This document shows, one piece after another, positions 5,828-27,086 of a stretch of DNA of 64,000 nucleotides. The notes beneath the pieces are model-generated. The model made no database searches. It worked only from the letters and a program-made list of their open reading frames with translations, and had not been told where the DNA came from. This stretch comes from an uncultured Clostridia bacterium (lineage in GTDB: Bacteria > Bacillota > Clostridia > TANB77 > CAG-508), in NCBI GenBank assembly GCA_947588945.1, contig CANPZY010000002.1, positions 29,592 through 93,591 of the forward strand, in the 5' to 3' direction. Position numbers and translations under genes: made by a program. Position 1 is the first letter of the stretch. Each line of letters starts with the position of its first letter.

Positions 5828-6003
5828 TAAAAAGATTAATAAAAAATAAATATATACAAAGTATAGCAAAATAAAGGTAATTATAAAAGTAAAAGAGATA
5901 TAAAAATTATTACAAAAATGTAAAGAAAATTAAGTATAAATTCTTGCAGAATCATTGAAATAAATGAACTACAAGAGTTTATACTTTTTTATTAATCTTT
6001 TTA
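5828..6003. promoter_or_regulatory. candidate invertible promoter switch P1: 19-bp inverted repeats (5828..5846 / 5985..6003) flanking a 138-bp spacer that holds a putative sigma-A promoter and a quasi-palindrome
   Basis: Left arm taaaaagattaataaaaaa and right arm ttttttattaatcttttta are exact reverse complements; the spacer carries ttcttgcagaatcattgaaataaatgaactacaagag (quasi-palindrome overlapping a TTGAAA...TATAC promoter-like site pointing toward 6128). Confidence 0.4.
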
Positions 6004-6127
6004 CTTAATAAAAAAAGATGGAAATGAAGTATTGTAATATACTAATTTAACACTTTATAAATAATAAGATTGATATAAATAATAAATATAAAAAGTTAAT
6101 AATAAAAAATAAGGAGAGAATCAAAGG

Positions 6128-7606
6128 ATGAGGAAAGTAAATTATAAGGAAAAAGGAATCACATTAATAGCATTAGTAATCACAATAATAATTCTATTAA
6201 TATTAGCAGGAGTAACGCTAACAACAGCATTGAGCCAAAACGGCTTATTTCAAAGAGCAAAAATAGCAGGAGAAAATTATAAAAGAGCAGAATCAGATGA
6301 GGCGGAAAAATTAGATGAATATTCAAGTGAGATTGATAAAATAATAAATGGAGAAGGAACATCATCATCAGAAGGAAAAATAAAGATAAATGAATTTTCA
6401 GTAAATGGAACAGATGTAACAGATGTACCTATTCCAGATGGCTTTGTACATGTAGGAGGAACGATAAACGACGGATATGTAATATCAGATGCACATCAAG
6501 ATGCAAACAAAGGAGCCGATTCAGATGAATTAATAGGAAATCAATTTGTGTGGGTACCAGTAAAACAAAATCAAAAAATAACATTAAAGGTGACAAGTGA
6601 GGAAGATATAACAAGTATAGTAGTAACAGATCCATATGGAAAAAAAATTTTAGAAAGAAATAATGAAGGAAAAAACTACAATAATGAAGAAATAGAGCCA
6701 ACAATAAATGGAGAATATAAAGTAAAAGTAACAACAAGTACAGGAGAGACAAGTAAATTATTAGAAGTATATAGTTTATATGCACAAAATTTTTGGATAA
6801 CGGAAAAATTAATTCTTGATTCAATTTTTGAAAGTATGAAAGCTATGGTAGAATCTCAGGGAGGAACAATAGAAGAACTTTTAGACGAAATGGATATGAC
6901 AAAAGAAGAATTAATAGAAGAATATATAGTCATGACTAAGAATGTAGAGAGCCTAGATGAATTTCTTGCAAAAATCAAAGCTCCAACTTTTTTCAAAGAA
7001 ACAGAAGATTATAAAACCAACGTAAATAAATACGGAGGATTTTATATAGGAAGATATGAGGCAGGAGTTTCATCAGCAGAAACAGATAGAACTGAATCAA
7101 GTAGTAATACGGAACAATTAGTAATACAAAAAAATAAATATGTCTATAATTATATATCATATGATGATGCATTAAATGAAGCACAAAAATATGCAACAAA
7201 TGTAGAAACAAATGCAAAAAGTTCATTATTAACTGGAGCAGCATGGGACAGAACATTAGGTTGGTTATATGAAACAGGAGATAAAACGATAGGAAAATTG
7301 ACAGTAGACAGTATGAGTTGGGGAAATTATAATGTTAATACTTTTTTTGAAAATACAGAAAATCCAAAAAAAACAGGAGAAAGTGAAAAAACAAAATCAA
7401 AAAATATATATGATTTAGCAGGAAATGTATCAGAATGGACTACAGAAGTCAATACCTCTGGAAGCGGTTGGCTTACTAGAGGCGGTATGGAGGGTGAAGA
7501 TGAAATTGTATCCGCTCGTGCAAATTTGCGCTCCTATTATGATTCCTCAAATAGAAAAACAAACATGGAAGTAGGTTTCCGCGTCGCTTTATATTTGTCG
7601 GACTGA
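6128..7606 (+). CDS. secreted pilin-like protein P1: prepilin-type leader/TM (KGITLIALVITIIILLILAGV) plus a C-terminal FGE-sulfatase-like C-type-lectin-fold domain
   Basis: N-terminus resembles a class III (type IV pilin) signal but with Ala at +5. The C-terminal domain has FGE-family motifs: ISYDDALNEAQKY, LLTGAAWDRTL, NIYDLAGNVSEWT, TRGG, VGFRVA. The last ~170 nt are GC-enriched. Confidence 0.7.
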   Translation: MRKVNYKEKGITLIALVITIIILLILAGVTLTTALSQNGLFQRAKIAGENYKRAESDEAEKLDEYSSEIDKIINGEGTSSSEGKIKINEFSVNGTDVTDVPIPDGFVHVGGTINDGYVISDAHQDANKGADSDELIGNQFVWVPVKQNQKITLKVTSEEDITSIVVTDPYGKKILERNNEGKNYNNEEIEPTINGEYKVKVTTSTGETSKLLEVYSLYAQNFWITEKLILDSIFESMKAMVESQGGTIEELLDEMDMTKEELIEEYIVMTKNVESLDEFLAKIKAPTFFKETEDYKTNVNKYGGFYIGRYEAGVSSAETDRTESSSNTEQLVIQKNKYVYNYISYDDALNEAQKYATNVETNAKSSLLTGAAWDRTLGWLYETGDKTIGKLTVDSMSWGNYNVNTFFENTENPKKTGESEKTKSKNIYDLAGNVSEWTTEVNTSGSGWLTRGGMEGEDEIVSARANLRSYYDSSNRKTNMEVGFRVALYLSD

Positions 7607-7888
7607 CAATGTGGAAGAATACAAGATCAAAAATGTGTGTAAAATGAAAATGTATTTTTTCTAACAAAAAATAGTAAAATTTATGATTTGATTAAAAGCA
7701 TCTCATGGATTTTACTATTTTTTTAATTTTTTCATAAAGCTTTTAATATATTCAACGCAATATTTTACTTTATTCGACATTTATTAATAAAAAAATTCCA
7801 ATTATATAATTGGAAAATAACAACTTAATCTAATATAGTCTTTGTAAAATACTAAAAATAGAATTTTAAATAAAATTATAGCAAATTA

Positions 7889-8096
7889 ATTAAGTAATAA
7901 ACTTAATAAAAATTTAGTATAGTCAAAATATATCATAAACCAAATAATTATACAAGTATAAAGAAAAAAATAATTAAAATTTTTTCTTTTTTTTATAAAA
8001 AATTTTCAAAAAAATTTTTAGTGATTTTATACTTATTTCAAGCATTATAGGATTTTAAAAGAAATAAATATTTTTTTATTAAGTTTATTACTTAAT
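7889..8096. promoter_or_regulatory. candidate invertible promoter switch P2: perfect 24-bp inverted repeats (7889..7912 / 8073..8096) flanking a 160-bp spacer with TTCAAA-N17-TATACT
   Basis: attaagtaataaacttaataaaaa and tttttattaagtttattacttaat are exact reverse complements; the arms are homologous to those of P1/P3/P4; the switch ends 68 bp upstream of the 8164 start codon. Confidence 0.45.
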
Positions 8097-8163
8097 AAAA
8101 ATATTATCAAATTATAGGTATATTAAGGAAATATACTTAAATATTAAGAAAAGGAGACTAAAG

Positions 8164-9756
8164 ATGAAGAAAGTAAATTATAAGGAAAAAGGAATCACAT
8201 TAATAGCATTAGTAATCACAATAATAATACTACTAATATTAGCGGGAGTAACATTAAATACAGCAATAAATCAAAATGGATTGTTTCAAAGAGCAAAGGA
8301 TGGAGCAGAAAAGTATATATTAGCACAGACAAAAGAAGAAGAAGTATTAAAAGAGTTAGAAAAATATATAGAAAGTGTAGGGAGTGAAGAAACAAATGGA
8401 AAATTCGAAAACAATGGAATAGACAAAACCCATGATGGAGCGAAATATGATCCGGTAGTAACAGATGATGGAATGTGGATAATATATAAAGATATAGATA
8501 CGAAGACAACAAAAGTAAATGTATATGTAGAATCAAAATATTATTATCCATCATTTGGACAATTTTATGTAGAAAAAGTTTGTTTGGCAGGAATCCTATG
8601 TAGTTATGGGTTACCGGTTTACAGTTTCTCTGACTTATCAGATTTTTATACGCAATTGATGATACTGAAATCCGAAGGAAGTTTAATATTTGATGAAGAT
8701 TATATAAGACAAAGAAAAGAAGAAATGAAAGTAGGAGTATTTTTTGAAGAATTATTAGAAAAAATGGGTGTAGATTTATATGACGCATATCAAGGGCTTG
8801 GAGAAATGATGATATCCGGGAAAGAAGATAACAATTTAGATGATTATATTAATGAACATGAAGAAGGAGAATTATTTTTAAATGGTATATCGTTGGCGAC
8901 GAGAAATAAACAACCAAATTTTTCTTATGAAAAATTAGAAACGACTTATAATAAGTTATATGGAGATAGAAAAGGTTTAGAAATACCAGAAAAAGAAAAA
9001 GAAAACACATATAAAATAAAATTACCAGATGGAAAAGAAGAAACAATAGATGGAACAGATTTATATAAAGCAAAATTTAGATATGTAACAACTAAAAATG
9101 AGAAAGTAGATATAGAAATAACCAAGAACGAGGATACACCACAAAAAATTACTTATGACAAAGTTAATAATATTAGTAATTGTATAGTAAAGGAAGAAGA
9201 ATACACATATACTTATAACTGTTTACCTTTTTTAGATGAGGGAAGTGGAGTTGGGATTTTTGATATAGAATCGATGATGAATGGAAATATAGATTACGAG
9301 AAAGTAGAAGACGGATTATTAAAATATAGATTTAACTTATGTGGATGGAATGTGAGTCGTAATGATATGGTTGAAGTTCTGTTTGATGGAGACGAAGAGA
9401 AATTAGAGGATTGGAAGTCTGTGAATACTGAATGCAAATACGTTGTTAATGATGAGCCTGTAACATGCATGGTTGGAACTTATTATGGGTCGACGTTAAA
9501 TTTTGATAGTATGAATATACCTGAGACAGTGGTTTACATGTTTGATACTTTTAGATCTTTTAATAATTATGGATCAAAAATAAAAGAGATTAAATTACCA
9601 AAGTCGTTAAAATATGGATCATATGTGTGTTATCCAAGTAAGAATATGAAATTTAAAATCTATGAGGGTTCGCTTACGAATAGCCCATGTTTTTTCGATG
9701 GTTATAAGCTAGAAGATATCGGGGGTAATGAGAATGATGTAGAGATATATAATTAG
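8164..9756 (+). CDS. secreted pilin-like protein P2 (530 aa) with a different C-terminal module
   Basis: First ~45 aa nearly identical to P1 and P4 (MKKVNYKEKGITLIALVITIIILLILAGVTLNTA...); the remainder is unrelated and Cys-rich. Confidence 0.7.
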   Translation: MKKVNYKEKGITLIALVITIIILLILAGVTLNTAINQNGLFQRAKDGAEKYILAQTKEEEVLKELEKYIESVGSEETNGKFENNGIDKTHDGAKYDPVVTDDGMWIIYKDIDTKTTKVNVYVESKYYYPSFGQFYVEKVCLAGILCSYGLPVYSFSDLSDFYTQLMILKSEGSLIFDEDYIRQRKEEMKVGVFFEELLEKMGVDLYDAYQGLGEMMISGKEDNNLDDYINEHEEGELFLNGISLATRNKQPNFSYEKLETTYNKLYGDRKGLEIPEKEKENTYKIKLPDGKEETIDGTDLYKAKFRYVTTKNEKVDIEITKNEDTPQKITYDKVNNISNCIVKEEEYTYTYNCLPFLDEGSGVGIFDIESMMNGNIDYEKVEDGLLKYRFNLCGWNVSRNDMVEVLFDGDEEKLEDWKSVNTECKYVVNDEPVTCMVGTYYGSTLNFDSMNIPETVVYMFDTFRSFNNYGSKIKEIKLPKSLKYGSYVCYPSKNMKFKIYEGSLTNSPCFFDGYKLEDIGGNENDVEIYN

Positions 9757-9786
9757 AAGAAAATTAAAATATAAAGGTAACAAAAA

Positions 9787-11025
9787 ATGACATTAATAAC
9801 GGAAATAATAAATTTTATAAATAAATTTTTTGGCTTTTTCAAAGTTGCAAATGGAGAAATGCATCCATATAATGATGATTTAGGATATGGAACGTTTGAA
9901 GATGCAAGGCATATATGGTGGATAGCAATAGTAATAATATTATCAATAGTTATGTACCAATATTGCAAAAAGAATAAAGAAAAAGGAAAAAAGCTAGTAA
10001 AATCAATAGTAATATTTGTGTTAGTGATAAGAATAGAATTACAAATAATAAAGTCAATAGTAGGTTGTTCATTACCATATGGAAGAGATTTAATACCGGG
10101 ACAGATGTGTACAATATTAATTTATCTTTTACCATTAATGATAATATTTGACTGGAAAAAAATAAGAACGCCAGTATGTATATTATCAATGATGGGAGCG
10201 ATAATGACGCTATTGATAAATGAATATTTTGATAGTAGATTTATGAGTTTTTATACAATAGAAGGAATATGGGCACATACAATGTTATTTGTAATACCAA
10301 TATCGTTGATAGGATTAGGAGAATTAAAATTAGAAGTAAAAAAGATATGGCAAATAATAGTAACAATGCTAATAATGATATTATGGGCAATATTCTTGAA
10401 TAAGGTTATGTTAAAAAATTATGAACCAAATTATTTTTACTTAGAGAAGAATATGTTACCGGGTAATCTAGGTGGGAAATATTTCTTTGGAATATATACG
10501 ATAATATTTTTTGTATTATTAGGAATAATATATATATTGCCAGTAATAATAAGAAAATTATCAAAAGTATTAATAAGAGGGAATGAAAAAATAAAGAAGA
10601 AAATAACAGTAATAGCAATAGTAAGTATATTAATAATAGCAGAGATATTAACAATAGGAGCAGAGACAAATAGAAAGACAAAAGTAAATGAAGAAGAGAA
10701 ACAGATAAATTTAGCAATATTATTAAGTATGGTAGAGAATAAATCACTAGATTTTAGAGAAGAGCAAATACAAGAAAGATTAGATAGTATAGTAGGAGAG
10801 AATAAAGTAGAAGTAAAAAAAGGAATAATAGGATTAAAAGTAAAATTTAAAGAGACAGGGAATAAATATAAAACAATAAATGCAAAATCAAATATAAAAG
10901 CGATAGTAATAAAAGGAAAGGTAAGAGAGATATTAAAATATATATTAGAAGCAATATTAATAGTAAATTTAATAATAGTGATATTTTTAATTTATAAAGG
11001 TAGAAAAGAAGTATATAAAGTATAA
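9787..11025 (+). CDS. polytopic membrane protein (412 aa), unknown function
   Basis: Multiple hydrophobic helices; lysine-rich C-terminal tail. Confidence 0.45.
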   Translation: MTLITEIINFINKFFGFFKVANGEMHPYNDDLGYGTFEDARHIWWIAIVIILSIVMYQYCKKNKEKGKKLVKSIVIFVLVIRIELQIIKSIVGCSLPYGRDLIPGQMCTILIYLLPLMIIFDWKKIRTPVCILSMMGAIMTLLINEYFDSRFMSFYTIEGIWAHTMLFVIPISLIGLGELKLEVKKIWQIIVTMLIMILWAIFLNKVMLKNYEPNYFYLEKNMLPGNLGGKYFFGIYTIIFFVLLGIIYILPVIIRKLSKVLIRGNEKIKKKITVIAIVSILIIAEILTIGAETNRKTKVNEEEKQINLAILLSMVENKSLDFREEQIQERLDSIVGENKVEVKKGIIGLKVKFKETGNKYKTINAKSNIKAIVIKGKVREILKYILEAILIVNLIIVIFLIYKGRKEVYKV

Positions 11026-11119
11026 AAAAGTAAAAGTTAAATTGATTAAAAAGAAATATAAATCCTTTATATTTGTGAGTATTTTAAAAGGATAAATAAT
11101 ATAATTATTTTTGTTTAAT

Positions 11120-11295
11120 TAAAAAGATTAATAAAAAATAAATATATACAAAGTTTAGCAAAATAAAGGTAATTATAAAAGTAAAAGAGATATAAAAATT
11201 ATTACAAAAATGTAAAGGAAATTAAGTATAAATTCTTGCAGAATCATTGAAATAAATGAATTACAAGGGTTTATATTTTTTTATTAATCTTTTTA
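11120..11295. promoter_or_regulatory. candidate invertible promoter switch P3: 19-bp inverted repeats (11120..11138 / 11277..11295), 138-bp spacer, ~95 % identical to P1
   Basis: Same arms as P1; the spacer contains ttcttgcagaatcattgaaataaatgaattacaaggg. Confidence 0.4.
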
Positions 11296-11428
11296 ATTAA
11301 TAAAACATATAGAAATAAAATTTTATAATGTATTGACTTAACACTGTATAAATAATAAAATTTGTATGATAATAAATATAAAATTTTACTGATTAAGATA
11401 AAAATACAAAAGAAGGGAAAGTTGAAAA

Positions 11429-13327
11429 ATGAGCAAAATTAAATTTATAAAAAAGAATCAAGATGAAAGTGGTATTACTTTAGTTGCATTAGTAGTTACT
11501 ATCATAATTCTTTTAATATTAGCAGGAATAACACTAAATGGAGCATTAAGTGCTAATGGACTATTTATAAGGGCAAAACAGGCTGCTGAAAAATATAAGA
11601 ATGCTGAAGAAATTGAAGAAGAACAATTGAGAGAAATTGAAAAACAACTTGACAACAAGAATTCTATAAATTCAGTTATTAAAGTAAAAGGTGTCGATTT
11701 TGACAGTAATGAATCAATAGGTAACTGGAAATTTAGTATATGTAAAGATAAAGAATGTCTTCAACCATTAGGAATCGATATTAAAGTTGGAGATAGTGGT
11801 GAAGCTGATTGTTCATCTCTTATAAAAGAAGCTGGTACCTATTATGTTGGTGTTACAGAACCTCCTGAATATAAAGATTTACCATTCGAATTATTTGAGT
11901 TTAACGTTGCAGATATAGAAGAAGAGCAAGATCTTGTTATTAAATTTAAAGGAGAAAGTTTGTCTGGAACAGGCCCATATCAAGGAACTTTCAATGGCTC
12001 AGATTCACCTGCCGAAAATACAGAATTTGATAAGAATGTTTCTTTACAAATCAGTTTTGGTGATTATGTTGAAATAAATCAATATAATTATTCTTCAAAT
12101 GGTAAAAAATTCTATCCTATAGATGACTCATATAGTTTAGCTCAAGAATTAAAGAATTCAAATTTTGAAATTGATTTTTATAAAATAGCTGAGTGGGATT
12201 CAGGCAAAAGTGAAGTTGTTTTAGATAATAATTTTAAAGACTTAAATAATGTTGATACATCTGATTTAGATACTGGTTCTACAATAGATCCTATTCTAAC
12301 AACAAGAATTAAAAATATAATAATAAAAAATAAATTGAAACCGACTGTTTCATATCAATATAGTGGTGAAAATATGTTACAATTAGAAAATGACACACAA
12401 CTAAAGAAGAAAGATTTCTACTTAATAGTACCACATGCTTCAAATAGTGAATTCGGAAAGGCATATACTAAATATTATGAAGTAGATTTTATACCTGCAA
12501 TTATTTCGTTTGTATATGCAAATGAAAATGGAGATAGTTTATATGATGTGTCTCTCGAAATAGATGCTGTAAATGCAAATAATATATTCTCTGATATTAA
12601 GATAGTTAATAACATAACAAATACTCCAGAAGGATCTTTTAAGACACAAGATTTTATATATGAAATTACTGCTGAACTTAATGGAGAGCATATGTATGAT
12701 GATATTATAGCAACTGAATGTGAAAATGAAGGAGAAAATACTTATTCAGCTGACAATTTGCCAGTTGGTTTAGAATATAGAATTTTCCCTTTATATTATG
12801 GAAATCAATGTTATCTTACTTCTGCAGATGAAGTAACAAGTGTAGTAATGAATGAAGAAGAAAACAATGTAGAATTCAATTTTGAATATTCTAATAATGG
12901 TAATAAAGATATATCTATACTTGAATATGAAGTTAAATATAACGATTATTACGAACAATGGGAAATTGAGTCACAAAATAGAAATCTTATAAATGATAAA
13001 ATTAATATAATTGATAATGGAGATGATTCAGAGAAAAATTCATTAAAAAGCATAGAAATAAAAAATACTGATTCAACTGATAAATATATCCGTTTTAAAA
13101 TCTTATCTTCACTAAATTTAGTATATTATTGTTCTGAGGAGGATAAATGGGTAAATAGTGATGAATTCTGGTATTATTCAAGCCAAGTTTCATCAAATGG
13201 CACAACTGGAAACTTACCTTTTGATATTTCTTTATCGGACTACGATGGACAACCATGTACTTATAATATAGTAATTATAGTAGAGTCAACAAATGCAGAT
13301 GATGAAGGAAATGCAAATTGGGAGTGA
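11429..13327 (+). CDS. secreted pilin-like protein P3 (632 aa)
   Basis: N-terminus ...DESGITLVALVVTIIILLILAGITLNGALSANGLFIRAKQAAEKYK is homologous to the P1/P2/P4 leader module; the C-terminal region is unrelated. Confidence 0.65.
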   Translation: MSKIKFIKKNQDESGITLVALVVTIIILLILAGITLNGALSANGLFIRAKQAAEKYKNAEEIEEEQLREIEKQLDNKNSINSVIKVKGVDFDSNESIGNWKFSICKDKECLQPLGIDIKVGDSGEADCSSLIKEAGTYYVGVTEPPEYKDLPFELFEFNVADIEEEQDLVIKFKGESLSGTGPYQGTFNGSDSPAENTEFDKNVSLQISFGDYVEINQYNYSSNGKKFYPIDDSYSLAQELKNSNFEIDFYKIAEWDSGKSEVVLDNNFKDLNNVDTSDLDTGSTIDPILTTRIKNIIIKNKLKPTVSYQYSGENMLQLENDTQLKKKDFYLIVPHASNSEFGKAYTKYYEVDFIPAIISFVYANENGDSLYDVSLEIDAVNANNIFSDIKIVNNITNTPEGSFKTQDFIYEITAELNGEHMYDDIIATECENEGENTYSADNLPVGLEYRIFPLYYGNQCYLTSADEVTSVVMNEEENNVEFNFEYSNNGNKDISILEYEVKYNDYYEQWEIESQNRNLINDKINIIDNGDDSEKNSLKSIEIKNTDSTDKYIRFKILSSLNLVYYCSEEDKWVNSDEFWYYSSQVSSNGTTGNLPFDISLSDYDGQPCTYNIVIIVESTNADDEGNANWE

Positions 13328-13518
13328 TTAGAAAATAATTATATAGTAAAAAAATGCATAAAACTTTTTATGCATTTTTTTTACTAATTTAATACTATAA
13401 TGTAGGTGTTACTATTTCTGATGAAAAAATAAAATCGATTAAAAAGAAATATACAAATCCTTGAAAAAATATATAAAAGATGATATTTTATATATAAAAA
13501 TATAGGAGGATAAAAGTA

Positions 13519-14890
13519 TTGGCAAAAGCAAAAACAGTATTTGTGTGTAGTGATTGTGGATATGAATCTCCAAAATGGCTTGGAAAATGCCCAGCATGTA
13601 ATGCTTGGAATACATTTTACGAAGAAAAAGTACAAGTTACAACATCATCTGGAACTAATGTAAAAATTAAGGAAAAAGCAAAACCACTTAACTTAAATGA
13701 AGTAAAAGGCGAAGAAGCAATTAGAACTAAGACTGGAGTTGAAGAATTAGACAGAGTTTTAGGTGGTGGAATTGTAAAAGGTTCACTGGTTTTACTTGGA
13801 GGAGAGCCAGGAATAGGAAAATCAACTCTTATTTTGCAGATTTGTGATAAAATAGGAACAGATGGAAAAGTGTTGTATGTATCTGGAGAAGAGTCAGCAG
13901 AACAGGTTAAGTTAAGAGCAGATAGACTTAATATAAAAAATGATAATATAATGTTTTTAGGAGAAACTGATATTGATGCAATTGAAGCAGAAATTTTAGA
14001 GATGAATCCAAAACTTGTTGTTATTGATTCTATTCAAACAATGTTTTCAAATGAAATTACATCAGCACCAGGAACGGTAAGCCAAGTTAGGGAGATTACA
14101 GCAAGAATAATGAAATGTTGTAAGCAAAACAAAATAACTACAATCATTATTGGTCATGTGACAAAAGATGGCAATATAGCAGGACCAAGAGTATTAGAAC
14201 ACATGGTAGATACAGTTCTTTATCTAGAAGGGGAAAGATTTTTTTCATATAGAATATTAAGAGGTGTAAAAAATAGATTTGGTTCAACAAATGAAGTTGG
14301 AATGTTTGAAATGCAAAATGAAGGAATGTGCGAGGTAACAAATCCATCTAAAATGCTTATTTCAGAAGAACAAGGACAGATCCCTCGGAACGGCAATAGT
14401 ATGTAGCTTAGAGGGAACAAGACCACTTTTAGTAGAACTTCAAGCATTAACCACACAGAGTTTTTATGGGATTCCTAAAAGGACAGGCAGTGGTATAGAT
14501 TTTAATAAAATTGCTTTATTAGTAGCTGTACTTGAAAAAAGAGCTCATTTAAGCTTAGGAAATCAAGATATATATTTGAATGTAGTAAGTGGTATGAAAA
14601 TAAATGAGCCAGCAATTGATTTAGGAATTGCATTAGTTATAGCGTCGAGTTTTAAAAATACATATATTTCAAAAGATACGGCTATAATAGGAGAAGTGGG
14701 TTTAACTGGTGAAATAAGAGCAGTAAATATGATAGAAAAAAGATTAAAAGAAGCAGAAAGACTTGGAATAAAAAAATGCATAATTCCAGAAAATAACAAA
14801 AAACACTTGAAAAATACTTATAAATTAGATATAATAGGTGTTAGAAATGTAAATGAAGCTTTGGATATTTGCTTTTTACGAAAGGAATGA
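13519..14890 (+). pseudogene. radA: DNA repair protein RadA, interrupted by a +1 frameshift (extra C at 14386)
   Basis: Zinc-finger CSDCGYESPKWLGKCPACNAWNT, Walker A GEPGIGKST and KNRFG motif, then ...ISEEQGQIP reads into a stop. The Lon-like C-terminus continues in the +1 frame as GTAIVCSLEGTRPLLVELQAL... Removing C14386 (in cctCgga) restores a single reading frame. Confidence 0.85.
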
Positions 14891-15948
14891 ATTTTAAAAT
14901 GGAAATTGTTGAAATTTTAAAAATGATAGCACCTGGTACTCAAATAAGAGAAGGACTAGAAAGCATTTTAAAAGCAAAGACAGGAGCATTAATTGTTATT
15001 GGTGATGGTGAAAAAGTTATGAGTATAGTTGATGGTGGATTTAATATAAATGTTGATTATTCACCTGCAAAACTTTATGAACTTGCTAAAATGGATGGAG
15101 CAATAATTTTAAGTGAAGACTTGAAAAAGATTTTATTTGCAAATGCCCAACTTATGCCTGATCCAAGTATTCCTACTACCGAAACTGGAACTAGACATAG
15201 AACAGCAGAAAGAGTAGCAAAAAAGACTAAAAATATAGTTATAAGTATTTCGCAAAGAAGAGAAATTATTACTATCTATAATGGAGAAGAAAGATATGTT
15301 TTAGAGGATACATCAAAAGTAGCAGCAAAGGCTAACCAAGCACTTCAAACAGTTGAAAAATATAGAAAAGTTTTTGATAATAAAATAAGTATGTTAAATG
15401 AATATGAATTCAACGATTTAGTAACAGTTCAAATAATTGTTGAAACATTGCAGAGAGCAGAAATGCTTATGAAGATTGCAGATGAAGTAAGGAAATCTAT
15501 TTATGAATTAGGAACAGAAGGTAGACTAATTGCAATGCAACTAAATGAATTAATTGACGGAGTAGAACGAGAAGAATTATTAATATTAAGAGATTATATC
15601 TGTAAAAAAGATGCATTAGATGCATATAAGAAAATAAGAAATCTAAGCATGGAAGATTTAATGAAACCAAATTTAATTGCATCAATTTTAGGAATAAAAG
15701 AAACAGACAATTATGATGAGATTACTATATATGCAAGAGGTTATAGAATTTTAAGTAAAATACCTAGAATGCCTGTAAATATTGTAGAGAATATAGTAAA
15801 AAGATTTAAAATATTTCAAAATCTACTTTCAGCTGACATTAATGAATTAGACAATGTTGATGGAATAGGAGAAGTAAGATCAAAGGCAATAGTACAGTCT
15901 TTAAAAAGAATGCAAGAACAATTTGTATTTGACAATATGATAATTTAG
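14869..15948 (+). CDS. disA: DNA integrity scanning protein DisA (diadenylate cyclase)
   Basis: Follows radA as is typical; DAC-domain motifs (DGAIIL, TGTRHRTAER) and a C-terminal HhH region. The true start may be ATG 14887. Confidence 0.85.
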   Translation: MLFTKGMNFKMEIVEILKMIAPGTQIREGLESILKAKTGALIVIGDGEKVMSIVDGGFNINVDYSPAKLYELAKMDGAIILSEDLKKILFANAQLMPDPSIPTTETGTRHRTAERVAKKTKNIVISISQRREIITIYNGEERYVLEDTSKVAAKANQALQTVEKYRKVFDNKISMLNEYEFNDLVTVQIIVETLQRAEMLMKIADEVRKSIYELGTEGRLIAMQLNELIDGVEREELLILRDYICKKDALDAYKKIRNLSMEDLMKPNLIASILGIKETDNYDEITIYARGYRILSKIPRMPVNIVENIVKRFKIFQNLLSADINELDNVDGIGEVRSKAIVQSLKRMQEQFVFDNMII

Positions 15949-18102: not shown

Positions 18103-20322
18103 ATGATTGCAGAGGTAATAATTAATAGTAGCGTAAAAACATTAAATAGAACATTTGATTATGAGATTCCCGAAAATTTAGATGTACATATCGGGACGAG
18201 AGTTTTTGTGCCTTTTTCAAGGAAAAAAGAATTAGAAGAGGGAATTGTTGTTGGAATAAAAGAAACCTCAGAATTTAAAGTAAAAGAAATTGCAGGACTT
18301 CAGGAAGAACAAATAAATGAAGATTATATTGAGCTTGCAAAATGGATGTCACACAGATATTTTTGTAATATATCAGACTGCTTGAAATTAATGTTACCAC
18401 CGGGAAGGACTTCAAAAAATATACTTAATAGAGTAAAGGAAAAGAGAGTAAATTTAGTAACTTTAGCAAAAGACGAAGATGAAATTTTGCAAGATATAGA
18501 GAGTGGAATAATAAAATCAGAGAAACAAAAAAGAGTTTTAGAGTTTTTGATAAATAATGGAAATGCTACTATTAGTGATATAGAACTTTTTACTGATGCA
18601 TCGAGTAGCATAGTAAAAACTCTTATAAAAAATAATTATTTAGAACAAAATAGTACTCAAATTGAAAGAAATCCATTTTTAAACAGAAAGATTGTGAAAA
18701 CTGTGGATTTAGAGCTTACAGATGAACAAAAAATTGCATACAATAATATTAAGGAGGATGGAAAATATTTATTATATGGAATAACAGGTTCAGGTAAAAC
18801 AGAAATATATTTAAGATTAATTGGAAAAATGCTAAAGCAAAATAAAAGCAGTATAATGTTAGTTCCAGAAATTTCACTAACTCCACAAACAGTTGATAGA
18901 TTTATTTCAAGATTTGGAGAAAAACATATAGCTGTTTTGCATAGTAAGTTATCAATTGGAGAAAGATATGATGAGTGGAATAAAATAAAATCAGGTGAAG
19001 CAAAAATTATTATAGGAGCAAGATCTGCTATATTTTCTCCAGCAGTTAATTTAGGGTTAATCATAATTGATGAAGAACATGATGAATCTTATCAATCAGA
19101 GATGACTCCTAGATATGATGCAAGGGAAGTTGCAGAATATATTTCAGAAAAGAAACATATTCCACTAATACTTGGAAGTGCTACACCAGATATGAATACT
19201 TTTTATAAGGCAAAAGAAGGAGATTATCAGTTATTAACTTTAAGCAAAAGAGCAAATAATTCAAAACTTCCAACAGTTGAGATTGTTGATTTAAGAGAAG
19301 AGTTAGCAAATGGTAATAAATCAATGATTAGCAAAAAGCTTTATGAAGAGATTAGAAAAAATATAGATAATAAAAAACAAACTATTTTATATTTGAATAG
19401 AAGAGGATTTTCGACATTTGTTATGTGCAGAGATTGTGGATATACTGTAAAATGTAAGAGATGCAACATTACTCTAACATATCATAAATATACTCATAAG
19501 CTAAAATGTCATTATTGCGGATATGAGCAAGATGAAGTAACAGAATGTCCAGAGTGCAAAAGCAAGAATATAAGATATTTTGGATCAGGTACACAAAAGT
19601 TAGAAGAAGAAATAAACAAATTATTTCCGGAAGCTACAACCATAAGAATGGATATAGATACAGTTTCTAAGAAAAATTCACACGAGCAGATTTTAAGCAA
19701 GTTTAGAGATGAAAATATAGATATTTTAATTGGTACTCAAATGGTAGTAAAAGGTCACCATTTTCCAAATGTTACATTAGTTGGAGTAATTGCAGCTGAT
19801 GGAAGTTTAAATATTGGTGACTTTAGAGCGAATGAAAAAACTTTTCAGATTTTAACGCAGGTTGCAGGTAGAGCTGGTAGAGAAAAGGATGAAGGAAGAG
19901 TTATAATTCAAACTTATAATCCTGATAATTATGCAATAGAATTTTCAAAATCACAAGATTATGATTTATTATATGACACAGAAATTGACATTAGAAAACA
20001 ATTGAAATATCCGCCATTTTGCGATATAATATTAATTGATATGTCAGCAAAAAATTTAAAAGAATTAAAAGATGTTTCAAAAAAAGTTCATGCTTATTTA
20101 AAAGATAGAGTTATAAATGAAAGGTTTGGAGTATTACTTTATAGTCCAGTACCTTCGCCAATTGACAAGATTAAAGATAGATACAGAATGAGGATAATAA
20201 TAAAGTGTAAGTATGATGATAGGATTAATAATTTGTTAAATGATTGTATGCAAGAATTTTATAAAATGAAAACATATACTTCAAGGATGGCAATAGAATT
20301 AAATCCAAACAATATGTTGTAA
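18103..20322 (+). CDS. priA: primosomal protein N' (PriA helicase)
   Basis: Walker A GITGSGKTE, DEEHD motif, Cys4 zinc motifs (CRDCGY...CKRCN...CHYCGY...CPEC). Confidence 0.9.
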   Translation: MIAEVIINSSVKTLNRTFDYEIPENLDVHIGTRVFVPFSRKKELEEGIVVGIKETSEFKVKEIAGLQEEQINEDYIELAKWMSHRYFCNISDCLKLMLPPGRTSKNILNRVKEKRVNLVTLAKDEDEILQDIESGIIKSEKQKRVLEFLINNGNATISDIELFTDASSSIVKTLIKNNYLEQNSTQIERNPFLNRKIVKTVDLELTDEQKIAYNNIKEDGKYLLYGITGSGKTEIYLRLIGKMLKQNKSSIMLVPEISLTPQTVDRFISRFGEKHIAVLHSKLSIGERYDEWNKIKSGEAKIIIGARSAIFSPAVNLGLIIIDEEHDESYQSEMTPRYDAREVAEYISEKKHIPLILGSATPDMNTFYKAKEGDYQLLTLSKRANNSKLPTVEIVDLREELANGNKSMISKKLYEEIRKNIDNKKQTILYLNRRGFSTFVMCRDCGYTVKCKRCNITLTYHKYTHKLKCHYCGYEQDEVTECPECKSKNIRYFGSGTQKLEEEINKLFPEATTIRMDIDTVSKKNSHEQILSKFRDENIDILIGTQMVVKGHHFPNVTLVGVIAADGSLNIGDFRANEKTFQILTQVAGRAGREKDEGRVIIQTYNPDNYAIEFSKSQDYDLLYDTEIDIRKQLKYPPFCDIILIDMSAKNLKELKDVSKKVHAYLKDRVINERFGVLLYSPVPSPIDKIKDRYRMRIIIKCKYDDRINNLLNDCMQEFYKMKTYTSRMAIELNPNNML

Positions 20323-20425
20323 TATAAGATGTTGTAAATTAATAATAAAGAATATTCATAAAACTTAAAATTAGTGAGAAATAATATAAATTTAACTTAA
20401 AATGATGTGCTGAAAGGAGAATTAA

Positions 20426-20908
20426 ATGGCATTAAGAGAAGTAAGAAAAGAAGGAGACGAAATTTTAAGAAAAAAATCAAGAAAAGTTGAAGTAATTGAT
20501 GATAAAATTAAAGAATTAATTAAAGACATGGATGAAACTATGCATTATTATAATGGTGTAGGAATTTCTGCTGTACAGGTTGGAGTTTTAAAAAGAGTCA
20601 TTGTAATTGACATTAATTATGATGGAACACCTTCTTTAATATTGATAAATCCAGAAGTTGTAAAAACAAAAGGAAGTCAAGAATGTCAGGAAGGATGTTT
20701 AAGTTTTCCAAATAAATTTGCAAAGGTCATAAGACCTAGTGAAGTTACAGTTAAAGCTTTAAATGAAAACGGAAAAAAGATTACAGTTAGAGGAAAAGGA
20801 ATTCTTGCAGAGGCACTTTTACATGAAATAGACCATTTAGATGGAATTCTTTTTGTTGATATAATGGAGCCGGGAACTCTTGAGTATATAGAAAATAAAG
20901 AAGACTAG
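20426..20908 (+). CDS. def: peptide deformylase
   Basis: Motifs GVGISAVQVG, EGCLSFP, HEIDHLDG. Confidence 0.9.
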   Translation: MALREVRKEGDEILRKKSRKVEVIDDKIKELIKDMDETMHYYNGVGISAVQVGVLKRVIVIDINYDGTPSLILINPEVVKTKGSQECQEGCLSFPNKFAKVIRPSEVTVKALNENGKKITVRGKGILAEALLHEIDHLDGILFVDIMEPGTLEYIENKED

Positions 20909-20973
20909 AAATTTAAAATAAAAAGTTTATAGGTGAAACTTAAAACCTAAATTTATTTATAAGGAAAAATCTA

Positions 20974-22008
20974 ATGAGAATAATTTTTATGGGAACACCA
21001 GATTTTGCACAAAAATCATTAAAGGCATTATATGAATCTGGAAATGAAATAATAGCAGTAGTTACAAATCAAGATAAACCAAAGGGAAGGGGAATGAAAT
21101 TAATAACATCCCCTGTTAAAGAATATGCATTAGAGAAAAATTTAAAGATTTATCAGCCAATAAAAATTAGAAAAAATGTTGATTTTATAAATGAGATTAA
21201 AAGTTTAAATCCTGATTTACTTTGTGTAGTAGCTTATGGAAAAATACTTCCTAAAGCATTACTAGATATTCCAAAATATGGAGCCATAAATGTTCATGGT
21301 TCGCTTCTTCCAAAATATAGAGGTGCTGCACCAATTCAATGGGCAGTATTAAACGGAGATAAAGAAACTGGAATAACTACAATGTTTATGGATGAAGGTA
21401 TGGACACAGGAGACATGATATTAAAAGAAAAAGTTCAGATAGGAGAAGATGAAACAACAGGAGAGCTATGGGAAAGGTTATCAAAGGTTGGAGCAAAACT
21501 TTTAGTTGAAACTGTAAATAAATTAGAAGAAGTAGTGCAAAACATCAAATTGACAAATGAAATTTTAGATGAGGATCAAAAAGAAAAATTAAAAGAAGAA
21601 GTAAAAAATAAAATAGGAGCAGAAAAACAAGAAGGAGAATTTACTATTGCACCAATGTTAGATAAAGAAATGGCCTTAATTGATTGGAATAAAAATGCTA
21701 AACAAATTAAAAATTTAGTAAGAGGATTAAATCCTATAATGGGTGCATATTCATTTTTAGAAGGCAAAAAAATAAAAATATGGAAAGTAAAAGAACTTGA
21801 AAAAATAGATGGAATCGCAGATGATAATATGCAAAATGGTGAGGTTGTAATCTCAGATAAGAAGAAAGGTTTATTTATAAAAACAGCAAATGGAATAATT
21901 GAGGTATTAGAGATTCAGGGTGAAAATGGCAAGAAAATGGATATAAAGTCATTTTTAAATGGAAATCAAATAAAAGAAAAAACAGTTTTTTCTGATAAAA
22001 TTTTGTAA
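20974..22008 (+). CDS. fmt: methionyl-tRNA formyltransferase
   Basis: MRIIFMGTPDFA..., NVHGSLLPKYRGAAPIQWA. Confidence 0.9.
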   Translation: MRIIFMGTPDFAQKSLKALYESGNEIIAVVTNQDKPKGRGMKLITSPVKEYALEKNLKIYQPIKIRKNVDFINEIKSLNPDLLCVVAYGKILPKALLDIPKYGAINVHGSLLPKYRGAAPIQWAVLNGDKETGITTMFMDEGMDTGDMILKEKVQIGEDETTGELWERLSKVGAKLLVETVNKLEEVVQNIKLTNEILDEDQKEKLKEEVKNKIGAEKQEGEFTIAPMLDKEMALIDWNKNAKQIKNLVRGLNPIMGAYSFLEGKKIKIWKVKELEKIDGIADDNMQNGEVVISDKKKGLFIKTANGIIEVLEIQGENGKKMDIKSFLNGNQIKEKTVFSDKIL

Positions 22009-22049
22009 AAAGCTTAGTATGACAAATAATATCTTTTCTTTTTAGGTAA

Positions 22050-22090
22050 AAATACCATCTAATAGTATTCTATTAGGTGGTATATTTTTG
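22050..22090. terminator. bidirectional hairpin terminator between convergent fmt and 22117..22728
   Basis: Stem accatctaatag / tattaggtggt followed by a T run. Confidence 0.5.
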
Positions 22091-22116
22091 ACTAAAAAGT
22101 ATTTGATTAATAAAAT

Positions 22117-22728
22117 TTACAAAAAAGCATTTAACTTATTTATATTATCTCTTTGGAATTTATTAAAGTCTTTTAGTAAATCAGTTGTGCTATCTTCTAT
22201 ACATAAATTACAATTTAAGATTTTTTGACATTCAATAACTCCCATAAGTGTTCCTTGTATCATCATTTCGGCAATATGAGAATTTGTACTATCTCTCAAA
22301 AGATTCATCTTTATTCCATAACAGCTCATCATTTTAGTGTATCTTGGGGTATCTTCTGGAATTTCTCCATATTTTTCAAAATGTTGATTTACTTGATGTA
22401 AAATGTTTGAGTATTGTGAATACATGGAAACAAGAAGCTTTTTCATTTCTTTGTCAGAAATTTTATTTGTTAAAAAAGATATACTACTCATACCCATTTG
22501 AGCAATTTTGCTAATTTCATTTAAAACAGCTAAATCAATATCGAAACAATTAAAGTCATCAGTTGAGTTACAAGACTCATTAGATTTCTTATTATCTGAA
22601 GATTCATCAGAAAGTTCAGGTTTTCTAGAATCAGTGATATTGTCAGATATATTGCTTTTCTTCTCATCCTCTTTTGAATCCATAGTGATATCTTCAGCGC
22701 TATTTTTGAGTGATTTATTCTTATCCAT
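22117..22728 (-). CDS. hypothetical acidic protein; possibly a coat-F-like helical protein
   Basis: 203-aa ORF with a Ser/Asp-rich N-terminus and a helical C-terminal half; assignment is weak. Confidence 0.35.
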   Translation of the reverse strand: MDKNKSLKNSAEDITMDSKEDEKKSNISDNITDSRKPELSDESSDNKKSNESCNSTDDFNCFDIDLAVLNEISKIAQMGMSSISFLTNKISDKEMKKLLVSMYSQYSNILHQVNQHFEKYGEIPEDTPRYTKMMSCYGIKMNLLRDSTNSHIAEMMIQGTLMGVIECQKILNCNLCIEDSTTDLLKDFNKFQRDNINKLNAFL

Positions 22729-22884
22729 AAAAAATTATCCTTTCTTTATTAAGTTAGAAAATAACCAAATAAAAATTTATTTATCATGTATTTTGCCCAT
22801 AATCTGAAAAAATATTATTGAAATAAGCAAAAAACTAGAGTATACTAAAAAAGAATAATAACAAAAAGGAGTAATCTTAAAAAA

Positions 22885-25800
22885 ATGGAATGGACCAAAG
22901 AACAAAAACAAGCAATTGAAAAAAATGGATCAAATATTTTAGTGTCTGCATCTGCAGGATCTCGGAAAAACTAGCGTATTAGTAGAAAGAATAATCAACA
23001 AAGTAATTAATCAAAAAATTGATATTGATAAACTTTTAGTTGTTACTTTCACAAATGCAGCAGCAAGTGAAATGAAGCAAAGGTTTTTAGATGCAATTTA
23101 CAAGAATATTGACAAAAATCCAGATGATGAGTATTTGCAAAAACAGATACTTTTATTAAATAGAGCTCATATTAGCACCATTCACTCTTTTTGTTTAGAT
23201 GTAATTAGAAATAATTTTTTTGAACTTGGAATTCCAGCAAACTTCAGAGTTGCAGATACAACAGAAATAAGCATAATGAAACAAGAAGTAATTGAGGATA
23301 TTTTTGAAAAGAAATATGAAGAAAATAATGAAGATTTTATAAATTTGTTAGAATTGTATACAACATATAAAAGTGATGACGCTTTAAAAGAAATTATTTT
23401 AAATATATATGAATTTACTAGATGTGTACCAAATCCAGAAAAATGGCTTGAAGAAAAAGTTGAATTATTAAATATAAAAGAAGAAGATTTTTTAAATACT
23501 ATCTGGGGTGAGATGTTATTTTCTAATGCAAAAAAATTAATAAATGATGCAATATCTAATCTTGAAATTTCAAAAAAAATACTTGAAGACCAGAGTGAAT
23601 TAGTAGATTGCATGGCTTTAGTAATGCAAGATTTTGATGATATATCAAGAATAAATACCGATACTTGGGATAATTTATATAAGGGAATATGTGACAAAGA
23701 ATTTGATAGGTGGTCAGGAAAAAGAAAATTTTCTTCTGAGGAAATTAATAAAATAAAAAATGATGCCAAAATATATAGAGATGAAGCAAAATCTTTAGTT
23801 GATTCAGAATTAAGAAACTTAATAAGTTGTACTTCAAAAGATGCAATAGAAGATATTAAAGCAATGTATCCAATTTTAAAATCAATAGAAGATTTAGTAT
23901 TAGATTTTTCAACTGAATTTGAGAGGAGAAAAAGAGAAAAAAATATTGTTGATTTTTCTGATATAGAGCACTTAGCTTTAAAACTTTTAATAGATGAAAG
24001 TGGAAAGAAAACAAAGATAGCAGAAAAATATAATTTTGAGGAAATAGATGTTGACGAATATCAAGATATTAACTTAATTCAAGAGAGTTTATTAAATAGT
24101 GTTTCTAACGGAAAAAATATTTTTATGGTTGGAGATGTAAAGCAAAGCATTTATAGATTCAGACAAGCAAGACCTGACTTGTTTTTAAGCAAATATGAAA
24201 AATATAAAAAAGATGACACTGAAGAAAATAACTTAAGCACTGATACTAAAATACAGCTTTATAGTAATTTTAGAAGTAGAGAAACAGTAATTAATTTAAC
24301 TAATCAGATATTTGAATGTATAATGAGCAAAGAATTAGGCGAAATGAATTATGATAAGGATGAATATTTAAACTTTGCCGGAACTTTTGATGAACCAAAA
24401 ATAGATTGTATAGCAGAGCTAAATGTAATAGAACTTGAAGATATGGATGGAGCACTAGATGAAACAAAAGAAAAAATTGATACTCAAGAAATAGAACCAG
24501 ATGCAGAGGATAGCGAAGATGAAGAACTTTTAGAAAAGTCAGTCTTAGAAGCAAGATTTACGGCTACAAAAATAAAAGAGTTAGTAGATAAAGGTTATAA
24601 TTACAAGGATATATCTATTCTTTTAAGAAGTCCTTCAAGCATTGCACCAATATATGAAAAAGAATTAATCGAGCAAGGCATACCTGTATTTTCAGATACT
24701 GCCTCAGAATATCTTGCATCAATAGAAATTGATACTATTATTTCAATATTGAAAATAATAGATAATCCACTTCAAGATATTCCTCTTGTAACTGTTCTAA
24801 GATCTCCAATTTTTAGCTTTAGTGAAAATGAATTAATGGAAATAAGACTTAACAAAACTAAAGTACCATTTTTTAGGGCATTGCAAGAAACAAAAACTGA
24901 CAAGGTAAAAAGATTTTTAAAACTACTAGATGAATGGAAAAAAGATGAAAAAGAATTACCTTTAGATGAATTAATTTGGAAAATATATTCACAAACCGGA
25001 TATTATCATTATGTAAGATTAATGCCTAACGGAAAATTAAGACAAGCTAATTTAAAAAAGCTATTTGAAAAAGCTAAAGATTATGAAAAGATTAGTTTTA
25101 AAGGGGTATTTAATTTCATTACATTTATCGAAAAAATTTCTAAAGAAAAATCAAGTATACAAGAAGCAAAGATAATTGGCGAAAATGATGATGTTGTCAG
25201 AATCATGAGTATACATAAAAGCAAAGGATTAGAATTTCCAATAGTATTTTTATGCGGTGTAGATAAACAAATGAATTTGAGAGATTTGAATGAAAAAATT
25301 GTTTTGGATCAAGATATTGGGATAGGTGTCAACTTAGTAAAAGATGGCTTAAATTACTCTACTTTAAGCAAAGAAGCAATTAAGATGAAAATGAGAAAAG
25401 AAGCTATCTCAGAAGAAATGAGAGTTTTATATGTAGCACTAACTAGAGCAAAAGAAAAATTGATTATCGTAGGTGCAGACAGAAAGGTAAATACAACTTT
25501 AGAAAAAAAGAAAGCTGAATTAGAAAAGTATAAAAGAATTGCTGGAATTAGTCCAAAATTAGTTGGAGACTATATAAGATACTTAGATTGGATTGAACTT
25601 GTATATTTATATAATCCAAGACTAAGCCTAAAATTAGATGTAATAGACAAAAATTCACTTATTAATTTAAAAAAGGAAAAGAGTGAAGAATTAGATGAAA
25701 TTAACTTTAATAGAAAAGTAGATAAAGAAAAATATAAAAAGGTTGATGAATTACTAAATTGGGAATATAAGTATAAAAATACTGTTGAATTGCCAAGCAA

Positions 25801-26422
25801 TGCATCTGTTACTCAATTAAAGGAAGAAAATCAGAATAAAGACGATAAAGAACTAGAACAAGGAAATGATGAAGTACAAAATTTATTTGTAAATAATTTT
25901 AACAATACTTTAGAATCTGATTATTTTGAGAATAAACATGATATAGAGATTAAAGGCGCAAGACTAGGAACTTTAATACATTTAGCTTTACAAAAAATTA
26001 GTATAACAACAAAAGATATTGAAAAATTAATTGAATCATTAAAAATTACTCAAGAAGAAAAAAATTCATTGAGGAAAGATAAATCTATTTTTGAAGATTA
26101 TATGAATTCTGAGCTTTTTGAGGATTTAAAACAAGCGAAAGAAATAAATAAAGAAAAACCTTTTTATATGAAAATACCTTATGAAGGTACAGAAGAAAAT
26201 GTTTTAGTACAAGGTGTTATTGATTTATATTATGTTGATAAAGATGATAAATTAATACTTGTAGATTATAAAACAGATAGAAATGTAAATGAGAAAGAAT
26301 TAATAGATAGATATAATTATCAATTAAGCTTATATAAGGAAGCGATAGAGAAATCTTTAAAGAGGAAGGTTGATAAAACATTAATATATTCAACTTATTT
26401 AGGAAAAACAATAGAATTATAA
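22885..26422 (+). pseudogene. addA: ATP-dependent helicase/nuclease subunit A (AddA), +1 frameshift inside the Walker A motif (extra C at 22963)
   Basis: MEWTKEQKQAIEKNGSNILVSASAGS then R K N stop. In the +1 frame GKTSVLVERIINKV...VVTFTNAAASEMKQR continues into the 1116-aa ORF (UvrD-like helicase plus C-terminal PD-(D/E)xK nuclease, VDYKTD). Removing C22963 (tctCgga) gives AGSGKT. Confidence 0.85.
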
Positions 26423-26494
26423 TAGATGATTTTTAAGTTAGATGATAAAGGCATGATAAAGATTATTAATAAAAAGAGGAGTTTTACATAAAAT

Positions 26495-26731
26495 ATGAGA
26501 ATAGACAAATTTTTAAAGGTATCAAGAATAATAAAACGTAGAACGATTGCTAATGAAGCAGCTGATAATGGAAGAATTTCAGTAAATGGAAGAGTTGTAA
26601 AACCAAGTTATGAAATTAAAATTGGTGATATTGTAGAGATAAGGTTTGGAAATAATACATCAAAATTTAAAATAATTGCTATTCCAAAAGGACAAAATTG
26701 CAATGCAAGTGAGGTAATAGAGCTATTGTAA
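26495..26731 (+). CDS. S4-domain RNA-binding protein (YabO/HslR-like)
   Basis: [49 protein letters not shown] is an S4 fold. Confidence 0.7.
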
Positions 26732-26760
26732 AGTGTAGATATGTATAAGCTTATATATTA

Positions 26761-26784
26761 GGTCAAGTGAAAAAGTAAATGCAA
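26761..26784 (+). repeat. copy 2 of the 24-nt motif GGTCAAGTGAAAAAGTAAATGCAA
   Basis: Exact copy; 450 bp upstream of P4. Confidence 0.6.
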
Positions 26785-26911
26785 TTTGTAGATATGCAAC
26801 AATTAATAATTACAATAAATTAAGTATAGAAATAAAATTTATAATGATATTGATTTATAAATTTTAATTATAAAATAAAATCATTAGAAAAATTATTTTT
26901 ATTTAATTAAT

Positions 26912-27086
26912 TTAAAAGATTAATAAAAAATAAATATATAATATATATAGCATAATAAAGTCAATTATAGAATAAAAAGAAATAAAAAAATATTACAAAA
27001 TTGTAAAGAAATTTAATTATAAACTCTTGCAAAATCATTGATATAAATGAATTGCAAGAGTTTATAATTTTTTATTAATCTTTTAA
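26912..27086. promoter_or_regulatory. candidate invertible promoter switch P4: 19-bp inverted repeats (26912..26930 / 27068..27086), 137-bp spacer with a perfect 12-bp palindrome overlapping TTGATA-N18-TATAAT
   Basis: Arms ttaaaagattaataaaaaa / ttttttattaatcttttaa; the spacer contains aaactcttgcaa-N18-ttgcaagagttt. Confidence 0.4.

Follow-up and report, generated by a model that had tools for sequence, protein, structure and literature searches.

Phase variation by means of invertible promoters is well known. In E. coli, the fimS element, a 314-bp invertible promoter at a single locus, switches the subunit gene of type 1 fimbriae, a chaperone-usher pilus, ON and OFF, with the tyrosine recombinases FimB and FimE, encoded by adjacent genes, acting on its short, 9-bp inverted repeats (IRs). 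In C. difficile, the flgB (Cdi4), cwpV (Cdi1) and cmrRST (Cdi6) switches are inverted by the remotely encoded tyrosine recombinase RecV (PMC5386303, PMC5903667), and a further report describes the flgB switch as acting after transcription initiation, through Rho (PMC7446863). Multi-copy families of switches with a common IR have been documented mainly in Bacteroides; according to two accounts that summarise it, B. fragilis keeps invertible promoters under a master serine recombinase, Mpi (PMC5386303, PMC5903667). Here we describe four IR-bounded segments, each upstream of one of four pilin-like paralogs (P1–P4), in a 64,000-nt stretch of DNA, hereafter the window, from an uncultured Clostridia bacterium of the TANB77 lineage (positions 29,592 to 93,591 of contig CANPZY010000002.1, assembly GCA_947588945.1). 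Comparison with related assemblies makes it probable that each segment is an invertible DNA switch, or inverton, that would render its own paralog phase variable.

Each segment lies between perfect IRs of 19 nt at P1, 24 nt at P2, 19 nt at P3 and 19 nt at P4, exactly at the coordinates given in a first-pass annotation of the window (Table 1). The interiors measure 138, 160, 138 and 137 bp, respectively, in agreement with the 137–160 bp given there, and the resemblance to Clostridial switches that it pointed out holds on measurement, with interiors of 137–160 bp and IRs of 19–24 nt here against an interior of 154 bp and IRs of 21 bp at C. difficile flgB (PMC5386303). The distance to the start codon, previously put at 70–125 bp, comes to 124, 67, 133 and 123 bp for P1 to P4 when counted from the exact right IR (IR-R), which places P3 slightly beyond that range. 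The arms lengthen to 32–43 nt once one or two mismatches are allowed. Exactly four perfect IRs of 17 nt or more around a gap of 100–200 nt occur in the window, whereas 60 first-order Markov simulations yielded 0.017 on average and never more than 1; a chance origin of the four pairs is thus excluded. Comparison of the window arms also bears out their proposed homology between loci. Exact copies of the 17-mer AAAAGATTAATAAAAAA are confined, within the window, to the six arms of P1, P3 and P4, and the upstream regions of these three genes can be aligned from about 20 nt before the left IR (IR-L) to the start codon. The upstream region of P2 has the inner end of the arms in common with the other loci and little else, and its arm sequence finds exact matches in the window at P2 only.

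The same unit recurs in relatives as a multi-copy family. A pattern scan of one genome per species, with the query AGATTAATAAAAA-N125-155-TTTTTATTAATCT, returned 19 loci: 16 in the rabbit-gut metagenome-assembled genome (MAG) 'uncultured Clostridia bacterium Lapin-028__bin79', one in each of two other Lapin MAGs, and one in Winogradskyella (L007), which we judged to be a chance match. All 18 real units directly precede a gene whose product begins with the shared pilin-like N-terminus. Other look-ups contributed L045, L049 (which makes five units in the window's own assembly), another unit in L017 and, with a P2-like arm, L051, the 17th unit of Lapin-028__bin79; the family thereby reaches 26 units in related rabbit-gut Clostridia assemblies, every one of them directly upstream of a pilin-like paralog. 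At least 17 units thus fall in the single MAG Lapin-028__bin79, a per-genome copy count that could be inflated by binning errors. This MAG represents a species related to that of the window, since its locus L016 is syntenic with the P2–TMEM164 region of the window at 83% nucleotide identity. The scan of JGI metagenomes gave no real unit (L025 alone matched, by chance), the scan of viral contigs found none, and the IR unit is absent from the loci of the homologs P0015, P0047 and P0207 in other species.

Several copies per genome with terminal IRs are also what a mobile element resembling a miniature inverted-repeat transposable element (MITE) would leave, lying near these genes by happenstance. 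The first-pass annotation had named the pattern that would mark such an element, namely units at many unrelated intergenic sites with target-site duplications, and the family looks otherwise: all 26 copies take an equivalent place before members of a single gene family, with a conserved leader and 5′ coding sequence that run on past the IR; the sequence shows no target-site duplication; and neither unrelated sites in the window nor the viral contigs contain copies. We therefore regard a MITE-like or phage-borne element as very improbable.

Two lines of evidence support inversion. First, two of the 26 units, L024 and L045, are flipped exactly between their IRs, with both flanks in the orientation of the family. 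In BLAST comparisons of either unit with the window, the alignment of gene plus leader runs one way and that of the switch the other, and the reversal falls at the IR. Against five reference units, the two interiors are 78–91% identical when reverse-complemented and 56–61% identical as found, and their 120-nt leaders are 79–95% identical in the normal sense; in control comparisons of standard interiors with one another, the values are 80–92% as found and 58–61% flipped. The C. difficile flgB switch, too, was first recognized by flipping a segment in silico (PMC5386303).

Second, the two arms of a unit match each other more closely than the arms of different units do. The arm layout is [A/T]TTAA[T/G] - 7 nt - [A/C]TTAAT - A5-6, and in each of the 25 complete units the partner arms agree throughout the 17 nt that begin at the 7-nt segment and run inward, compared with a mean difference of 2.2 positions between arms of different units. 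The 7-nt segment occurs in 11 variants across loci (TAAAAAG, CAAAAAG, GAAAAAG, CATAAAG, TAAGAAG, TAGAAAG, TATATAG, TTAAAAG, TAATAAA, TAAATAA and TATTCAA), each of them mirrored in the partner arm. The base just outside the arm is T on the upstream side and G on the gene side in most units, and this flank identity is retained in the flipped L024, so that exchange would have taken place inside the identical 17–19 nt. In a tyrosine-recombinase core site, two inverted half-sites flank a short asymmetric spacer whose sequence has to be the same in both partners. The arm layout would suit a core site of this type, and arm identity together with the flipped copies supports programmed inversion by a site-specific recombinase. 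Arm co-variation alone would equally fit a long-range stem in the 5′ untranslated region, the arms pairing in RNA with no recombination of DNA. Such a stem is, however, at odds with the flipped interiors of L024 and L045 and with the terminator-like hairpin inside the would-be loop; an Rfam search of the leaders found no riboswitch or other RNA family, and there is no conserved promoter upstream of IR-L. It therefore seems highly unlikely.

Programmed inversion must be weighed against observations that tell the other way. The core of the first-pass proposal, that the IR-bounded segments upstream of the pilin-like paralogs are invertible switches, is supported by the two flipped units among 26 and by the co-varying arms, but each window locus was seen in one orientation only: other assemblies match the window (three each for P1 and P2, one for P4), and in the same-locus comparison, made across assemblies with exactly the P1, L17 or S4 protein (L001–L003, L026–L028), all were in the window's orientation. 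Look-ups of the exact P4 protein and of the TMEM164-like protein returned no record. The flipped L024 and L045 belong to other assemblies, as paralogous or orthologous units, and do not represent two observations of one locus; among other samples, the 489-aa gene of L024 was found on one contig only, and its 407-aa neighbour was not returned. The flipped L045 also precedes a frameshifted gene. Finally, a recombinase motif scan of the window and about 340 kb of other DNA, 406 kb in all, found none except the known integrase remnant.

These same data are what favour static regulatory IRs, such as paired operators or DNA looping, in which the flips would be rare accidents of homologous recombination between short repeats: 406 kb scanned with no recombinase found, other assemblies of P1, P2 and P4 with no same-locus heterogeneity, and flipped units amounting to only 2 of 26. 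Arms of 19–24 nt are, however, poor substrates for RecA, perfect identity of arms that come in 11 variants among 25 units indicates selection for partner identity, and both flips break inside the IR, at different loci. The geometry, moreover, equals that of proven switches (PMC5386303). We consider static IRs unlikely and retain programmed inversion as the better account.

The first-pass statement that the window holds no recombinase gene and only a remnant of an integrase proved correct in Pfam and motif scans. In the remnant (about 30254–30695), an N-terminal piece is joined to a C-terminal LGHASIEMTERYTH tail, and the catalytic core is deleted; an HTH_17-like excisionase open reading frame (ORF) precedes it, the pair spanning 29990–30695. 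The only intact recombinase seen is a 402-aa tyrosine recombinase beside an HTH_17 gene, about 5.8 kb upstream of the type IV pilus operon of locus L055, and it is probably a mobile-element integrase.

The interior of the unit has a conserved architecture with an element at each end. TRTGnTAnnnT, the Gram-positive extended −10 form, occurs in 24 of the 25 units scanned, always pointing outward, at 12–15 nt from the interior end in 23 units and at 26 nt in L018, against a background rate of 0.68 per kb per strand. It is retained in the diverged copies P2, L009, L017 (both units) and L020, and L051, found after that scan, has TATGATATATT at 13 nt; the sole exception among the 25 is P4 of the window, which has TATGCTATATA at the equivalent position, its final base being A. 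In standard copies, including all four window loci, the element is gene-distal and faces away from the gene, and in L024 and L045 it faces toward it. Near the centre, a palindrome, TTACA-N4-TGTAA, is conserved and reads identically in either orientation. At the other end, a conserved 15+4-bp hairpin with an A run and a T run at its sides abuts IR-R (z values in Table 1), and its stem shows compensatory changes at 12 of 19 pairs among 21 copies.

From this layout we propose the following mechanism. A remotely encoded site-specific recombinase, which we infer together with reversibility within a population, would recombine the two IR arms and flip the 137–160 bp interior, changing the cis elements that face the pilin-like gene, so that each paralog would be phase variable independently. 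About 14 nt inside one of its ends, the interior would carry a single outward-facing promoter of the extended −10 form (TRTGnTAnnnT), and at the other end an insulating, terminator-like hairpin bordered by an A run on one side and a T run on the other. As the window loci stand, the promoter would fire away from the gene with the hairpin on the gene side, an OFF or basal state; in the flipped orientation, the promoter would face the gene, the ON state. We favour this assignment of flipped as ON by a modest margin over even chances.

The first-pass annotation had placed the switch promoter at the gene-proximal end, facing the gene. That assignment is doubtful: the spacer of the motif is 19 nt long, the motif overlaps the loop and 3′ arm of the hairpin, and diverged copies do not keep its −10. 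The P4 example, reported as TTGATA-N18-TATAAT, has a spacer of 19 nt in fact and sits at 27038–27068, within the hairpin. The P2 example, TTCAAA-N17-TATACT, is indeed present but ends 39 nt short of IR-R. If such elements were nonetheless active, the segments would be invertible with the reverse wiring, the majority orientation being ON through the gene-proximal TTGAAA/TTGATA-N19-TATAxT or through a promoter in the leader, and the flipped orientation OFF. Most copies, the diverged L009 and L017 among them, retain the −35-like TTGAAA, the P2 promoter faces its gene, 24 of 26 copies in the ON state would be unremarkable, and the frameshifted gene of L045 follows a flipped unit. On the other side, a 19-nt spacer is outside the usual range of 16–18; the motif spans the loop and 3′ arm of a hairpin with a co-varying stem, so that its '−10' is altered in L009, L017 and L020; and at the opposite end all diverged copies keep TRTGnTAnnnT, with its sequence, position and direction preserved. 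The reverse wiring is possible but seems to us the less probable of the two, and a two-promoter or modulatory arrangement takes up whatever likelihood they leave.

Some features of the loci count against the proposed mechanism. The hairpin is missing from P2, where a fair forward promoter is present. In about 12 of 20 copies, a canonical-looking promoter, TTGACT-N17-TAAAAT, stands in the leader between IR-R and the gene and is thus external to the switch; its equivalent in P4, TTAACT-N17-TAAAAT (27124–27152), is weakened, that in P1 is degenerate and P2 has none. The leader promoter and the P2 forward promoter together argue against a tight OFF state. Promoter-like matches, further, come cheap at 27% GC, and consensus scans cannot settle which orientation is ON: counts in a consensus promoter and terminator scan of the switch regions were not above those in shuffles, and the terminator rule, which asks for 3 or more G-C pairs and a loop of 3–8, is blind to long, AT-rich hairpins of this kind. 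In L017 and L020, by contrast, only about 25–30 nt separate IR-R from the ribosome-binding site, which leaves no room for a leader promoter, and their promoter must therefore lie inside the switch.

P1–P4 have an N-terminus of about 65 aa in common (MRKVNYKEKGITLIALVITIIILLILAGVTL...) and unrelated C-terminal domains. They score 17.9–18.8 bits against Pfam N_methyl, below the cut-off of 21.2, an NCBIfam search of the proteins gave zero matches, and position +5 of the N-terminus is Ala instead of Glu; the NCBI name for homologs is 'type II secretion system protein'. Locus L055 (ERZ27249440 NODE_327, 1799-15107), from the same assembly as the window's contig and with similar coverage, is a type IV pilus operon that encodes a prepilin peptidase, two T2SSE proteins, one T2SSF protein and an 81-aa pilin with the P1–P4 N-terminus; the switch is absent from it. 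Because this operon pilin carries the same N-terminus, 'pilin-like' is a reasonable label for the P1–P4 genes. In L045, the gene (301-1396) is frameshifted near GGAAACACACGGCCCAAAAG, with the same frameshift in three independent samples (L045, L046 and L047), and is either a pseudogene or a further variable site.

A relic of a diversity-generating retroelement (DGR) lies beside P4 (28205-29760), just before the integrase remnant. It comprises the variable region within P4, a template repeat (28822-28940), an N-terminally truncated Avd (about 28470-28742; NF033474, E = 7e-7) and, on the opposite strand, a truncated reverse transcriptase (29228 to about 29760; RVT_1, YQDD). Of 39 differences between variable region and template, 27 fall at template adenines, and P4 would therefore once have been hypermutated besides being under switch control. 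Just 5′ of the P4 switch, a 44-nt imperfect palindrome lies at 26801-26898, and its centre (26854) is the exact end of two Logan contigs.

Pilin-like genes of other gut Clostridia that have no inverton have instead a dinucleotide repeat inside a short leader ORF. In L035–L041, (GA)n stands about 380 nt upstream of the gene for P0047, with n = 10, 10, 13, 14, 14, 16 and 16 across samples that encode an identical protein; a hairpin with a T run follows the repeat in L035, and L059 has (CA)14 at 8572. These repeats are a candidate slipped-strand device for phase variation in the same gene family.

The window is chromosomal, has a GC content of 27% and also encodes rpsM-rpsK-rpsD-rpoA-rplQ, radA, disA, folD, priA, def, fmt, an AddA-like helicase and glycolysis genes. 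Two GtrII-like glucosyltransferase paralogs lie on the minus strand (4350-5795 and 54399-55877), one of them directly preceding the P1 switch, and could glycosylate surface structures. A Tad-like pilus cluster at 34801-45118 encodes a CpaB-like SAF protein, a weak TadA-like ATPase, unassigned proteins of 227, 281 and 682 aa, and six small proteins, four of which start with MENASKA; its pattern of gene lengths matches a cluster that has been described as confined to the uncultured order TANB77 (Table 1 of PMC11680825), a match which itself suggests that the organism belongs to this order. A lone arm-like AAAAGATTAATAAATAA with one mismatch lies at 34763-34779, 22 nt before the first gene of this cluster; it has no partner arm, and we set it aside as a switch arm, its presence probably being due to chance.

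Table 1. Positions of the switches, their component parts and the pilin-like genes (window coordinates unless another contig is named)
Feature	Position	Strand	Details
P1 left IR	5815..5846		exact core 5828-5846; [A/T]TTAAT - 7 nt (TAAAAAG) - ATTAAT - AAAAAA
P1 interior	5847..5984		138 bp; minus-strand extended -10-like TTTGCTATACT 5860-5870; central palindrome TTACAAAAATGTAA 5910-5923; hairpin 5932-5984 (z = -6.2)
P1 right IR	5985..6016		exact core 5985-6003; extended pair 32 nt, 91% identity
P1 pilin-like gene	6128..7606	+	492 aa; N_methyl N-terminus and FGE-sulfatase-like C-terminus, both sub-threshold
P2 left IR	7870..7912		24 nt exact, 7889-7912; variant arm ATTAAG-TAATAAA-CTTAAT-AAAAA
P2 interior	7913..8072		160 bp, diverged; minus-strand TATGATATATT 7927-7937; plus-strand TTCAAA-N17-TATACT 8005-8033; stable hairpin absent (z = +0.6)
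P2 right IR	8073..8115		24 nt exact, 8073-8096
P2 pilin-like gene	8164..9756	+	530 aa
P3 left IR	11106..11138		exact core 11120-11138
P3 interior	11139..11276		138 bp; minus-strand TTTGCTAAACT 11152-11162; palindrome 11202-11215; hairpin 11224-11276 (z = -4.1)
P3 right IR	11277..11309		exact core 11277-11295
P3 leader promoter-like TTGACT-N17-TAAAAT	11333..11361	+	outside switch
P3 pilin-like gene	11429..13327	+	632 aa
P4 left IR	26893..26931		exact core 26912-26930; 7-nt variant TTAAAAG, mirrored in right arm
P4 interior	26931..27067		137 bp; minus-strand TATGCTATATA 26944-26954; palindrome TTACAAAATTGTAA 26993-27006; perfect 18-bp hairpin 27015-27069 (z = -7.9)
P4 right IR	27067..27105		exact core 27068-27086
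P4 pilin-like gene	27210..28394	+	394 aa; DGR variable region 28205-28325
L024 flipped unit	CANQHI010000017, 1866-2031		MAG contig; intact 489-aa gene, minus strand
L045 flipped unit	ERZ27249363 NODE_37878, 9-166		

One switch family would here serve a whole pilin-like surface repertoire in an uncultured, host-associated lineage of Clostridia, and an association of TANB77 pili with stimulation of host immunity has been reported (PMC11680825). Such a system, if real, would account for surface variation in these bacteria; it would also provide about 26 natural site variants for defining the recombinase target and point to a master invertase. It also warns annotators that loci of this kind may be assembled in an orientation other than the expressed one. 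We put forward only tentatively a wider picture, in which at least 17 modular type IV pilin-like adhesins per genome would be governed by one inverton family and one remote master recombinase, most of them OFF and few ON, with P4 hypermutated by its DGR as well and sister lineages using dinucleotide repeats, forming a layered system of antigenic or adhesive variation undescribed for Firmicutes.

Full-text literature searches on invertible promoters with pilins, Clostridia or TANB77 yielded no description of this switch family, and the known systems each match it in part. Like E. coli fimS, the segments would turn a pilus subunit gene ON and OFF; unlike fimS, they lie at many loci and their target is type IV pilin-like. 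With the C. difficile switches they have in common a host among the Clostridia, a place upstream of surface or motility genes and discovery by in-silico flipping (PMC5386303, PMC5903667), and here too the recombinase would be encoded at a distance. The C. difficile IRs, however, are mostly unrelated to one another and to those of the window; the flgB left IR, AAGTT(A/G)CTAT(A/T)TTACAAAAAA (PMC5386303), shows no similarity to TAAAAAGATTAATAAAAAA except for the A run. Unlike in C. difficile, moreover, one homologous switch family here stands before many paralogs and apparently carries both a promoter and a hairpin. The Mpi switches of B. fragilis, as the two published accounts summarise them, resemble the present family in being many per genome, in a common IR core and in surface structures as targets; here, too, the recombinase would not be adjacent and the loci would switch independently. 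They differ in that the present family belongs to Clostridia, has another IR sequence and precedes pilin-like genes rather than capsule loci, with at least 17 copies per genome before one paralogous family and with the 5′ leader and N-terminal coding module co-duplicated with the switch. The segments are therefore very probably switches of a known general type, and what is distinctive about them is their copy number, their link to a co-duplicated leader and N-terminal module, and their built-in hairpin.

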